NCBI GenBank assembly: GCA_965204535.1
Contig: CBDBEV010000001.1
Location: forward strand, 2,080,001 to 2,144,000
Length of the DNA stretch: 64,000 bases
Reading direction: 5' to 3'
From: a bacterium
Lineage (GTDB): Bacteria > UBA8248
Positions 18,204 through 19,242 of the stretch are shown piece by piece. The notes below the pieces were generated by a model that saw only the letters and a list, made by a program, of their open reading frames with translations, ran no database searches and was not told the DNA's origin. Position 1 is the stretch's first letter, and each line of letters begins with the position of its first letter. Made by a program: the position numbers and the translations under genes.

Positions 18204-18353
18204 TCCCATGAACTTCTCTCTGTAATGTTTAGCTGGGAAATTTGTTTCTCCGCACATCAAAATATGCGCTAAGTAGATTTGTTCTCATCACTTGTTTTCT
18301 ATGAAACGTAATGTATACTTAAATGGTGAAATCACATTAAATGGGCAATAGGC

Positions 18354-18439
18354 CATCCTTGGCGGGACTCGAACCCGCGAGGCTCGTCTAAGCCGCTAGC
18401 TTCCAAGGCTAGTGTGTATACCGATTCCACCACAGGGAT
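18354..18439 (-). tRNA. Atypical tRNA-like gene: Leu-type long-variable-arm body, UGG (Pro) anticodon, no encoded CCA
   Basis: Acceptor AUCCCUG/CAAGGAU (one mismatch); D-arm UGGUGGAAUCGGUAUACAC; anticodon arm CUAGC-CUUGGAA-GCUAG; variable arm GGCU-UAGACG-AGCC; T-arm GCGGG-UUCGAGU-CCCGC; discriminator G. Confidence 0.85.
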
Positions 18440-18516
18440 AGCCGGTCGGGGGAGTGTTGCATCCCCGGCCTATTGCCTTGTCTTCAATGACCCGTGGCGC
18501 GGGTAAAATCTATACC

Positions 18517-18627
18517 CTATTTACAGGGTTTAGGTTTGCTTCGCTTATGTGGATCAACCTGCACCGTTTTAGGCCCAGGTTTTTTGCCAGATCGAACTTG
18601 ACGCGGTTTTTTCTGACAATCAGCCAT
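18517..18627 (-). CDS. 36-aa Lys/Pro-rich mini-ORF MADCQKKPRQVRSGKKPGPKTVQVDPHKRSKPKPCK
   Basis: Tandem AAGGAG RBS, the proximal one 6 nt before ATG; lies downstream of the predicted promoter; below the ORF-track size cut-off. Confidence 0.65.
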   Translation of the reverse strand: MADCQKKPRQVRSGKKPGPKTVQVDPHKRSKPKPCK

Positions 18628-18719
18628 CGGTTTCTCCTTTCTCCTTCGGCCAATATCCGAAGGTGGTTAGAGTAACGGGAGGATTCCCGCGCCACGGGTC
18701 TTTAGACCCAAGAGAGGTT

Positions 18720-18748
18720 AATATATATCACTTCTTGTAAGAAATCAA
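18720..18748 (-). promoter_or_regulatory. Sigma70-like promoter of the mini-ORF/tRNA-like transcript, containing a 12-nt Cas9 target
   Basis: Minus-strand TTGATT-17 nt-TATATT; the spacer includes the complement of TCACTTCTTGTA (18728-18739). Confidence 0.7.
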
Positions 18749-18799
18749 ATATGTAGTGGCAACAGTTGCAAACAAATACCAATTCAACTAGATTACAAT

Positions 18800-18861
18800 T
18801 TATCGTTACAAGGTCACTTCTTGTAGTTGTGAATTGTAACGAGGCGTCGATCAGCTATGGG
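18800..18861 (+). ncRNA. Putative crRNA-like regulatory RNA (26-nt pseudo-spacer + degenerate repeat)
   Basis: 18826-18861 GTTGTGAATTGTAACGAGGCGTCGATCAGCTATGGG is 25/36 identical to the array repeat and complementary to tracrRNA; preceded by a 35-nt GTTG...TACAAT element (18765-18799). Confidence 0.75.
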
Positions 18862-18912
18862 TCGATTCATTCTTACCGATTGAATCGACCCGTCGAAGGC
18901 TCCCGGGACGGA

Positions 18913-19242
18913 TCAGAACAGCGTGATCTGCTCGGGAGCCTTTTCCGTCGCCTTGCGGATCTTCCCGTAGAAAATCTTCATCCGCGAGAACTGCTTGTCG
19001 GTGAAAAGCAGAAGCCGCACCTCCCCGTCCGGGGGAAGCGCGGCGTTGATGCGCCGCTCGTGCACCTCAGCGTTCTCGGAACTCGGGCAATGCCGGGCGT
19101 AGACGGAATACTGGAGCATCGTGAACCCGTCTTCGAGCAGGGAGCCGCGAAACTCCTGGTAGGCCTTGCGCGCCGCCTTCGTGTCCGTCGGCAGATCGAA
19201 CATCACCATGAGCCACATGCTGCGCCACCCCCCGAAGCTCAT
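18913..19242 (-). CDS. cas2: CRISPR-associated Cas2
   Basis: MWLMVMFDLPT and GFTMLQYSVYAR type II Cas2 motifs. Confidence 0.96.
   Translation of the reverse strand: MSFGGWRSMWLMVMFDLPTDTKAARKAYQEFRGSLLEDGFTMLQYSVYARHCPSSENAEVHERRINAALPPDGEVRLLLFTDKQFSRMKIFYGKIRKATEKAPEQITLF

Follow-up and report, generated by a model that had tools for sequence, protein, structure and literature searches.

A candidate Cas9-repressed cargo gene between cas2 and the repeat array of a type II-C locus

We analyzed a 64,000-nt stretch of bacterial DNA (UBA8248 lineage; contig CBDBEV010000001.1, positions 2,080,001 to 2,144,000), hereafter the window, from a host genome of 4.56 Mb. Its CRISPR locus, with cas9, cas1 and cas2, is interrupted at the 3′ end of cas2 by a low-GC cassette, where a lone degenerate repeat stands next to a gene for a 36-aa basic protein. 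The 12 nt that abut this repeat recur exactly within the predicted promoter of the gene, and both copies are preserved in a diverged related locus. The best reading of this arrangement is that Cas9, led by a CRISPR RNA (crRNA)-like guide and the trans-activating crRNA (tracrRNA) of the locus, would repress a captured cargo gene by seed-only pairing; we give it a probability of roughly 0.55, on the strength of sequence comparison.

Results

A guide next to a lone repeat matches the promoter of a small gene

The preliminary description of this DNA had proposed a lone degenerate repeat with a pseudo-spacer on the + strand, an opposite-strand promoter with an exact match to the 3′ 12 nt of that spacer and, downstream of this promoter, a 36-aa open reading frame (ORF) and a tRNA-like gene. 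All of these are present, at 18826-18860 (repeat), 18748-18720 (promoter, in a scan that by itself does not rise above chance), 18517-18627 and 18351-18440 (ORF and tRNA-like gene, both on the - strand). The elements at the heart of the arrangement are the following:

18800..18825, + strand: pseudo-spacer (guide); identical to the target in its final 12 nt (18814-18825) and without a match further upstream
18826..18860, + strand: lone degenerate repeat, keeping positions 1-11 and 17-33
18728..18739, + strand: target, the 12-nt guide match within the promoter spacer
18720..18748, - strand: sigma-70-like promoter of the small gene, with TTGATT (18748-18743), a 17-nt spacer and TATATT (18725-18720); 9/12 matches
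18766..18794, + strand: candidate guide promoter, with TTGCAA, 17 nt and TAGATT; 8/12, picked by eye and below the scan threshold
18485..18713, - strand: predicted small-gene transcript, with putative ends

The 12-mer TCACTTCTTGTA abuts the lone repeat (18814-18825) and has an exact second copy at 18728-18739. It occurs three times in the 4.56-Mb genome, never near the cas9 promoter, while the composition-aware expectation for a second copy within the cassette is 1e-4. The identity between guide and promoter is thus confirmed and lies far beyond chance. It spans 12 of the 26 nt of the pseudo-spacer, all at the repeat-proximal end, and falls between the -35 and -10 boxes. Because type II crRNAs run spacer-then-repeat, the matching nucleotides would constitute the seed proximal to the protospacer-adjacent motif (PAM). 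The flank of the target on the PAM side is AGAAATCAA, which overlaps the -35 box; the flank type that we considered for the PAM is the AGAAATCA-type. What backs our promoter call is its position and its conservation, not the scan.

The lone repeat is 76% identical to the array repeat over a 37-nt family window. The altered positions are concentrated in its middle and at its 3′ end, where they destroy the TACAAT (-10) box. Transcription from the candidate promoter at 18766-18794 would begin near 18801 and yield a guide of about 25 nt. The stretch from 18800 to 18945 folds with -75.5 kcal/mol (z -8.6), and the guide unit ends in a strong hairpin and T-run overlapping the cas2 stop.

The lone repeat keeps its pairing with the tracrRNA of the locus

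The machinery that such a guide would use is encoded close by:

17881..18114, + strand: CRISPR array, four repeats of 36 nt, all identical, with three 30-nt spacers
18913-19242, - strand: cas2, from a domain scan of the window proteins
19239-20132, - strand: cas1, from the same scan
20125-23085, - strand: cas9, 986 aa, with HNH, RuvC_III and Cas9 alpha-lobe domains
23136..23275, + strand: tracrRNA candidate with putative ends; anti-repeat at 23136-23172, hairpins, T-run near 23268

The three cas genes form a cas9-cas1-cas2 operon on the minus strand, and by gene content the locus has a type II-C layout, its flanks lying outside the scan for csn2 and cas4 models. The array repeats (17881-17916, 17947-17982, 18013-18048 and 18079-18114) each terminate in TACAAT, which suggests that crRNAs are probably read on the + strand, towards cas2. 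Neisseria-type II-C arrays, with their internal promoter, offer an analogy for this direction.

The tracrRNA candidate lies upstream of cas9 and divergent from it, 4.3 kb from the guide unit and separate from it. A 24-nt stretch (23135-23158, +) is 96% complementary to the array repeat; an AT-rich promoter-like sequence precedes the anti-repeat, with hairpins and the T-run after it. We considered whether the lone repeat might itself be the tracrRNA anti-repeat read on the wrong strand. This was ruled out by the better anti-repeat, with promoter and terminator, upstream of cas9, a place that it occupies in 7/7 orthologous loci compared.

The degenerate repeats remain complementary to the anti-repeat. 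In the window, the duplex of lone repeat and anti-repeat is predicted at -51.9 kcal/mol vs. -53.1 kcal/mol for the canonical repeat, with 300 shuffles giving -16.4 +/- 3.1. The corresponding values for a related locus described below (G007) are -43.5 vs. -54.2 kcal/mol, and -16.6 +/- 3.3 for shuffles.

The host genome has a second Cas9 locus (C1:198976-205200), with a Cas9 36-38% identical to that of the window and an array built on another repeat (ATTGTAGCAAGTCGAGGGGTGGC...). Even so, an anti-repeat-like sequence that is of the window repeat type lies upstream of its cas9. The cas9-and-array part of this locus is repeated at C2:11-4500, which may be an assembly duplication.

Guide and promoter are invariant in a distant orthologous locus

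For comparison we used six same-genus genomes with Cas9 proteins 73-82% identical to that of the window (14/61 genomes searched had any Cas9 match), leaving aside the distant Cas9 loci at 36-39% identity (G030, G048, G001 and the host's own second locus). One of the six (G007), the most distant (Cas9 73%), has a homologous cassette, with roughly 500 nt inserted at the same cas2 position. Its ORF is homologous (MANNCQKKVRQVRPGNKPGPKTVPVKPHKRSKPKSR) and has the same ribosome-binding region, hairpin and promoter, but promoter and ORF together have the opposite orientation to that in the window, which points the gene at the lone repeat.

The two ORFs have diverged to a proportion of synonymous differences (pS) of 0.71 and of nonsynonymous differences (pN) of 0.16 over 21 aligned codons, and the module DNA is 71% identical. 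Two blocks are nevertheless invariant, TTGATTTCTTACAAGAAGTGA (21 nt, promoter) and GTCACTTCTTGTAGTTGTGAATTG (24 nt, guide and repeat start), while their flanks do not align. In G007 the guide-target identity reaches 13 nt; in both genomes it ends at the first repeat base, and AGAAATCAA is kept on the PAM side. Since both blocks are invariant despite near-saturated synonymous sites and the inversion of the ORF, guide and promoter behave as a selected pair.

By contrast, none of the 41 other loci encoding the protein family has the 12-mer; it characterises the CRISPR-embedded copies alone. When searched with a profile, the protein family is found in 2/42 genomes of the host's taxonomic family (the host and G007), with one copy each, each within the II-C locus; a search with the cassette DNA likewise returns 2/42. 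The search of related II-C loci that the preliminary description had called for thus recovered guide, promoter and ORF in 1/6, and the tRNA-like gene in none.

Two simpler accounts of the paired 12-mers were tried. Terminal inverted repeats of a miniature transposon would fit G007, where 13-bp inverted copies surround the ORF, but not the window, where the repeats are direct and 74 nt apart. A single inversion between the 12-mers, converting one arrangement into the other, was ruled out because the -35 box travels with the gene.

The small gene belongs to a widespread unannotated family

The 36-aa ORF (18627-18517, -) encodes MADCQKKPRQVRSGKKPGPKTVQVDPHKRSKPKPCK, a very basic product (13 Lys or Arg/36) that has no hydrophobic stretch. 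It had zero matches in Pfam, NCBIfam, PHROGs, PADLOC, a PDB profile search and the ESM Atlas, and its AlphaFold model is a coil (pLDDT 74.7, pTM 0.17, the model's confidence scores). Homologues of 34-55 aa share the motif KPGPKTVPVKPHKRSKP, sometimes in two copies, and usually a Cys near each end. Family loci comprise 8 in species genomes (which record titles assign to Alpha-, Gamma- and Zetaproteobacteria and Parcubacteria), 34 metagenome loci and 1 viral contig out of 2.9 million. Among 14 homologues pN/pS is 0.14 (pS 0.80), which indicates that the protein itself is under selection. The ORF is therefore a protein-coding member of a widespread, unannotated family under purifying selection, and the mini-peptide of the preliminary description is not specific to this locus: 41/42 further family loci have no cas genes, the exception being G007's own record.

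The surroundings of the gene in these loci are of a mobile or defence kind. An IS1595-family transposase lies 116-242 nt upstream of the small gene in five (L040, L048, L049, L056 and L060), and the gene stands 1.4 kb downstream of such a transposase in a sixth, L062. In this last metagenome contig (L062:2676-5178), 35-nt terminal inverted repeats enclose both transposase and small gene, the latter thus being a transposon passenger there; comparable terminal inverted repeats were not found in L040, L048, L049 and L060. Elsewhere the gene is divergent from an HTH-Panacea protein (L045) or adjoins AbiEi/AbiEii (L044) or a DUF1780 protein (L042). Two-motif members directly follow a TIR-domain protein in L063-L065, L069, L071 and L072 (metagenome loci, some of them near-duplicates), mostly downstream of a 1200-aa type IIG restriction-modification enzyme (DUF7149, DUF7814, Eco57I, TaqI_C). 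The type IIG enzyme, TIR protein and small gene may form a conserved defence-island trio.

The predicted mRNA is compact. Its 5′ clamp arm (18700-18686) pairs with a 3′ clamp arm (18503-18489), and a hairpin lies beside the Shine-Dalgarno sequence. The minimum-energy fold (z -6.1) includes this 15-bp clamp and has the Shine-Dalgarno paired. A gapless helix of at least 13 bp between the 5′ and 3′ untranslated regions is found in 16/22 family loci, formed by unrelated sequences, vs. 2.7% of 440 shuffles. A MAFFT alignment of 14 transcripts left the 5′ arms out of register, and the helices were taken locus by locus with the shuffle control.

Duplicated flanks show the cassette to be an insertion at the cas2 3′ end

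The segment 18074-18203 is duplicated at 18821-18950 (130 nt, offset 747 nt), and the cassette between the copies, 622 nt of low-GC DNA at 18204-18825, is therefore an insertion at the cas2 3′ end. The duplicated segment comprises the last repeat, a trailer of about 50 nt, a terminator hairpin and 38 nt from the very end of cas2. Its copies and the unassigned part of the cassette are:

18115..18203, + strand: junction copy A, conserved trailer, terminator hairpin with T-run and 38-nt cas2 3′ remnant
18204..18350, no strand: low-GC filler, no recognised feature, GC 0.43-0.45
18861..18950, + strand: junction copy B, diverged trailer, terminator hairpin with T-run overlapping the true cas2 3′ end

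The insertion has its left edge at 18203/18204. Copy A is 96.6% identical to the uninterrupted junction of G014 and folds with -40.8 kcal/mol (z -4.8). GC content between the junction copies is 38-52% vs. 60-73% in the cas genes. The only second copy of any cassette DNA in the genome is a 43-nt match to the tRNA-like gene, the filler being single-copy. In five of the six orthologous loci (G014, G002, G009, G015 and G017), the last repeat runs through the conserved trailer to the cas2 3′ end uninterrupted. Among sequencing runs, 857-nt contigs in X1 and X3 span 18086-18942 with zero differences (these runs may be the source sample), while contigs in X4 and X5 join across the cassette, skipping 755 and 747 nt.

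Over their whole length, all cas segments of the window resemble those of G014 and G017 most closely. This rules out a co-transfer of the cassette with cas1-cas2 from a G007-like donor and implies that the cassette is patchily distributed, having either been lost repeatedly or moved between loci via the duplicated flanks.

Two more lone repeat-like sequences lie far from arrays in the host genome (C2:480316-480345 and C1:732874-732901), 93% and 96% identical to the window repeat over 28-30 nt and both ending in ...CAGCTGAAAT. Directly after the former come 13 nt that match the cas2 3′ region exactly. For the 11-13 nt upstream of each, genome matches are at chance level only.

The tRNA-like gene is most likely a passenger

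Downstream of the small gene, two further features occupy the cassette:

18441..18476, - strand: hairpin (GGGGA...UCCCC) and 5′ helix arm; GGCAAUAGGCC is the 5′ arm of an 11-bp outer helix enclosing the tRNA-like gene
18351-18440, - strand: tRNA-like gene, 90 nt, anticodon TGG (UGG) by ARAGORN

The Rfam tRNA model matches at 18354-18439 (52.8 bits, E 2.1e-9). The predicted RNA is of class II and combines a long variable arm with a D arm of the Leu type. Pair 5:68 is a C-A mismatch, the T stem has 5 bp (GCGGG/CCCGC), and the acceptor has 7 bp (Rfam alignment) or 8 bp (ARAGORN) and can be extended to 11 bp. The D-arm motif is of the viral tRNA-Leu type (52/60 IMG/VR matches). No CCA is encoded, as against 47/52 predicted tRNAs of the genome, and the 90-nt length and long variable arm also depart from the canonical form of the 77-nt tRNA-Pro(UGG) at C2:2177232-2177308.

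Relatives were sought by pattern search, and two were the only matches among 51 genomes of the class. The paralogue in the host genome (C2:1733066-1733157; L002) has 92 nt, anticodon GCG, the same D arm and a C-U mismatch at pair 5:68. A hairpin lies just upstream of it and a T-run directly after its extended acceptor helix, with no guide. It sits in an island of 39-50% GC, between a small GIY-YIG-like ORF (read from its translation) and a large gene. The relative in G022 (L083) has 89 nt and anticodon CCA. Separately, a tRNA-Leu(GAG) copy at C1:919698-919781 is degraded: its anticodon is GCG, its T stem is broken and CCA is missing. It is probably a pseudo-tRNA or integration remnant.

The G007 cassette has no tRNA-like gene, nor does any of the other five orthologous loci (0/6). 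Given its absence from the G007 cassette, we consider the gene to be most likely an unrelated passenger of the inserted DNA.

A further side feature of the window is a stretch at 24265-24369 (31-34% GC) that contains two repeats, one direct (41 nt, 76% identical) and one inverted (19 nt). It lies just upstream of an ORF (24361-25470) and resembles an operator or repeat region.

Discussion

A model of Cas9-guided repression

We propose that the lone repeat and its 12-13-nt guide would give a crRNA-like RNA that pairs with the tracrRNA of the locus, and that together they would lead Cas9 to bind, but not cut, the promoter of the adjacent 36-aa basic-protein gene. The AGAAATCAA flank may serve as PAM, and Cas9 placed between the -35 and -10 boxes would block RNA polymerase, so that the gene is likely repressed. 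The guide RNA would come from its own weak promoter in the window and from read-through of the small gene in G007, where a feedback loop would result. Loss or inhibition of Cas9, tracrRNA or guide would release the small gene. The earlier proposal that Cas9, tracrRNA and guide silence a transcript thus stands to the extent that guide and promoter behave as a selected pair in G007 and the repeats pair strongly with the tracrRNA; a tRNA-shaped effector is unlikely.

A number of observations weigh against this model. The promoter at 18720-18748, the sole sigma-70-like site in a scan of 17800-19000, is no more than expected from shuffles (1 seen vs. 1.2 expected). As AGAAATCAA doubles as the -35 box, its conservation is no argument for a PAM, and 204 spacers from 6 arrays, searched against the host's own genome, gave chance-length matches of 16-21 nt only and no usable protospacer. 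The candidate guide promoter is weak in the window and not recognisable in G007; the target holds a short palindrome (TTCTT-NN-AAGAA) that a protein could bind; the guide region of the window can fold back on the altered middle of the lone repeat, which could hinder loading; and a search of sequencing runs found the region in no RNA run. The two carriers are homologous, with no compensatory change between guide and target, and therefore represent one evolutionary origin. On the side of the cargo, 41/42 further family loci lack cas genes, the protein is hydrophilic, unlike classical small toxins with clamped mRNAs, and its toxicity is a pure guess.

Two side results bear on the same points. The 77-spacer array of G009 had zero matches in phage and plasmid collections, and its non-array matches in the 42 genomes of the host's taxonomic family were repeat-like sequences, with no protospacers. 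Within the pseudo-spacer, the 5′ non-matching part CGTTACAAG is complementary to the altered repeat middle TTGTAACG (18800-18845, +), a complementarity that is not conserved in G007.

The main alternative is an inert scar, in which the lone repeat is a decayed terminal repeat-spacer unit split off by the insertion, the 12-nt identity is a recombination microhomology and nothing is regulated. It would account for a cassette that is an insertion flanked by a 130-nt duplication, has a foreign GC content and carries a small gene linked to mobile elements elsewhere. Relatives lacking the cassette are common, and the genome has two other lone repeat-like remnants with no detectable target. A scar is expected to drift, yet both 12-13-mers are invariant at a synonymous difference of 0.71, and the lone repeat retains exactly its tracrRNA-pairing parts. 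Moreover, the 12-mer copies are not at the insert junctions, and no single junction model fits both their direct orientation, 74 nt apart, in the window and their inverted orientation, about 330 nt apart, in G007. We consider a scar unlikely. A solitary repeat could also have been brought in with a mobile-element fragment, as an anti-CRISPR-like decoy soaking up Cas9 or tracrRNA; solitary repeat units acting as RNA anti-CRISPRs have been described (PMC10651486, in the part of the text available), and here the lone repeat lies in foreign low-GC DNA and pairs strongly with the tracrRNA. A decoy, however, needs neither a conserved 12-13-nt guide nor a matching promoter, and it would not be expected to be kept in the host locus of two species beside intact cas genes and arrays (22 spacers in G007, 3 in the window), nor to have its small protein encoded by just 1 of 2.9 million viral contigs. 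It is the least probable of the explanations that we weighed.

Two further alternatives assign the function elsewhere. The effector could be the tRNA-like RNA, co-transcribed under the Cas9-controlled promoter and toxic through mis-decoding or in some other way: its gene stands downstream on the same strand with no promoter of its own recognised, and the class II shape of the RNA with a Pro anticodon is unlike the genome's 77-nt tRNA-Pro(UGG). Irregular tRNAs with mismatched anticodons have been reported near toxin-antitoxin systems, some being lethal in E. coli (PMC5389517, available portion). Its absence from the G007 cassette, the occurrence of its paralogue (GCG, C2:1733066-1733157) and of the G022 relative (CCA) in other contexts, the lack of an encoded CCA vs. 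47/52 genome tRNAs, and a 5′-3′ clamp suggesting that the small-gene transcript ends before it all make the tRNA-shaped effector first proposed very unlikely. The 12-mer could, alternatively, be the binding site of a DNA-binding protein, placed at the promoter and beside the repeat, with Cas9 uninvolved. Operators are commonly placed between -35 and -10 boxes, the target is part of a short palindrome (TTCTTGTAAGAA), and the very basic 36-aa protein (13 Lys or Arg/36) might itself be the ligand. Against such an operator, the palindrome is not kept at the guide site, where the identity ends at the first repeat base in both genomes, the 12-mer is not at the promoters of 41 other members of the protein family, and the predicted structure of the 36-aa protein is a coil that shows no DNA-binding fold. 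We rate its probability as slightly lower again than that of a toxic tRNA.

As to the cargo in the Cas9-repression model, our guess is that a growth-arresting protein of the CreTA/CrePA kind fits better than a housekeeping role, given the transposon and defence-island contexts and the clamped mRNA with its sequestered Shine-Dalgarno. Taken together, this would make the cassette the first natural Cas9-dependent addiction or anti-anti-CRISPR module, in which a captured growth-arresting protein is silenced by a seed-only guide and the ordinary tracrRNA, loss of Cas9 or an anti-CRISPR would release the toxin, and the cassette would travel by recombination in the duplicated repeat-trailer-cas2 flanks. 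We put this fuller version forward tentatively, as possible but doubtful in its entirety.

Relation to known systems

Type I toxin mRNAs of the hok or aapA type have a small ORF in a compact transcript whose 5′ and 3′ ends meet in a long-distance helix. The long-distance 5′-3′ helix and paired Shine-Dalgarno of the small-gene transcript resemble these, a likeness drawn from general knowledge of such mRNAs and not from a family model; the protein differs in being hydrophilic and very basic and not a small hydrophobic membrane peptide. Type I toxin genes also come with an antisense RNA encoded in cis or in trans; none was seen here, no search aimed at it having been made. The tRNA-like RNA, for its part, shares with allo-tRNAs a long variable arm, an anticodon that misfits the body and a home in mobile or toxin-antitoxin-rich DNA, and GCG, the anticodon of its paralogue, is a frequent allo-tRNA anticodon. 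In the text available, allo-tRNAs are defined by a 12-bp acceptor branch with 8/4 or 9/3 acceptor/T-stem geometry (PMC5389517). The tRNA-like RNA has a different geometry, with a 5-bp T stem, a 7-bp acceptor and a Leu-type D arm like that of viral tRNA-Leu.

Our comparison with RNA-guided repression draws on those parts of the cited reports that were accessible. Autoregulation of Cas proteins by crRNA-like RNAs (CreR) is described for types I-B, I-E and V-A (10.1101/2023.03.10.532045), and supervision of defence systems by crRNA-like RNAs (crlRNA) in a 2024 preprint (10.1101/2024.12.27.630466), where the sole mention of Cas9 in the accessible text concerns pro-CRISPR proteins. As is proposed here, mini-arrays or lone repeats with partial-match guides silence promoters in or beside the cas locus. 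Those systems are of types I and V-A and not of the Cas9 type, and in the window the target is neither a cas promoter nor a recognisable defence gene. A preprint by Shmakov counts mini-arrays other than tracrRNA in about 6% of type II loci, which in its accessible portion are not analysed.

For Cas9, what is known from these sources is limited to autoregulation by tracr-L and a virulence regulon under scaRNA. In Streptococcus pyogenes (type II-A), tracr-L represses via an 11-bp duplex at the cas9 promoter, and in Francisella novicida scaRNA-guided Cas9 binds with limited complementarity and does not cleave (10.1101/2023.03.03.530964). Both share with the proposed module a Cas9 locus, a tracrRNA and a short-complementarity guide directed at a promoter or start region. 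They differ in that tracr-L is a long tracrRNA isoform repressing the cas operon itself, whereas the window would employ a separate crRNA-like unit needing the ordinary tracrRNA, and in that scaRNA addresses a chromosomal lipoprotein regulon whereas the gene concerned here is cargo inserted in the locus.

If the model is right, it would provide a natural example of seed-only Cas9 repression with a standard tracrRNA and extend the idea of addiction and anti-anti-CRISPR to class 2 systems. It would also offer a simple genetic readout for AcrIIC-type inhibitors and a first functional handle on a widespread, unannotated family of 34-55-aa basic proteins found in transposons and defence islands.

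The closest parallel is with CRISPR-repressed cargo. Our literature search found no description of a Cas9-controlled cargo or toxin module, supplements and subscription-only papers being outside its scope; the author of the preliminary description knew of no Cas9-controlled module with a tRNA-shaped effector. In the literature covered, and as far as its accessible parts go, such cargo (CreTA, CrePA, proline-codon toxins and crlRNA-supervised defence) is otherwise of type I. CRISPR-repressed toxins of types I-B and I-F include RNA toxins, the KilAC-domain protein CreP and proline-codon toxins (10.1101/2024.01.05.574328; 10.64898/2026.06.02.729485), and CrePA is a captured phage-derived protein repressed by CreA (10.1101/2024.01.05.574328). 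CreTA and CrePA are hosted by type I-B haloarchaea and by type I-F Acinetobacter and Pseudomonas. As in these modules, a degenerate repeat lies within the cas locus and would give a crRNA-like RNA, which is here predicted from its pairing; the match of the pseudo-spacer to the promoter of a small cargo gene next to it is confined to the seed; and the cargo can be a captured mobile-element protein, as in CrePA. What distinguishes the window is its single recognisable pseudo-repeat, the location of the module between cas2 and the array, a cargo that is a 36-aa basic protein of an undescribed family and, above all, the putative use of Cas9 and tracrRNA (class 2, type II-C) in place of a type I Cascade or Csy complex. 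We therefore describe the cassette as one that would work like CreTA and CrePA, and not as a member of their group.

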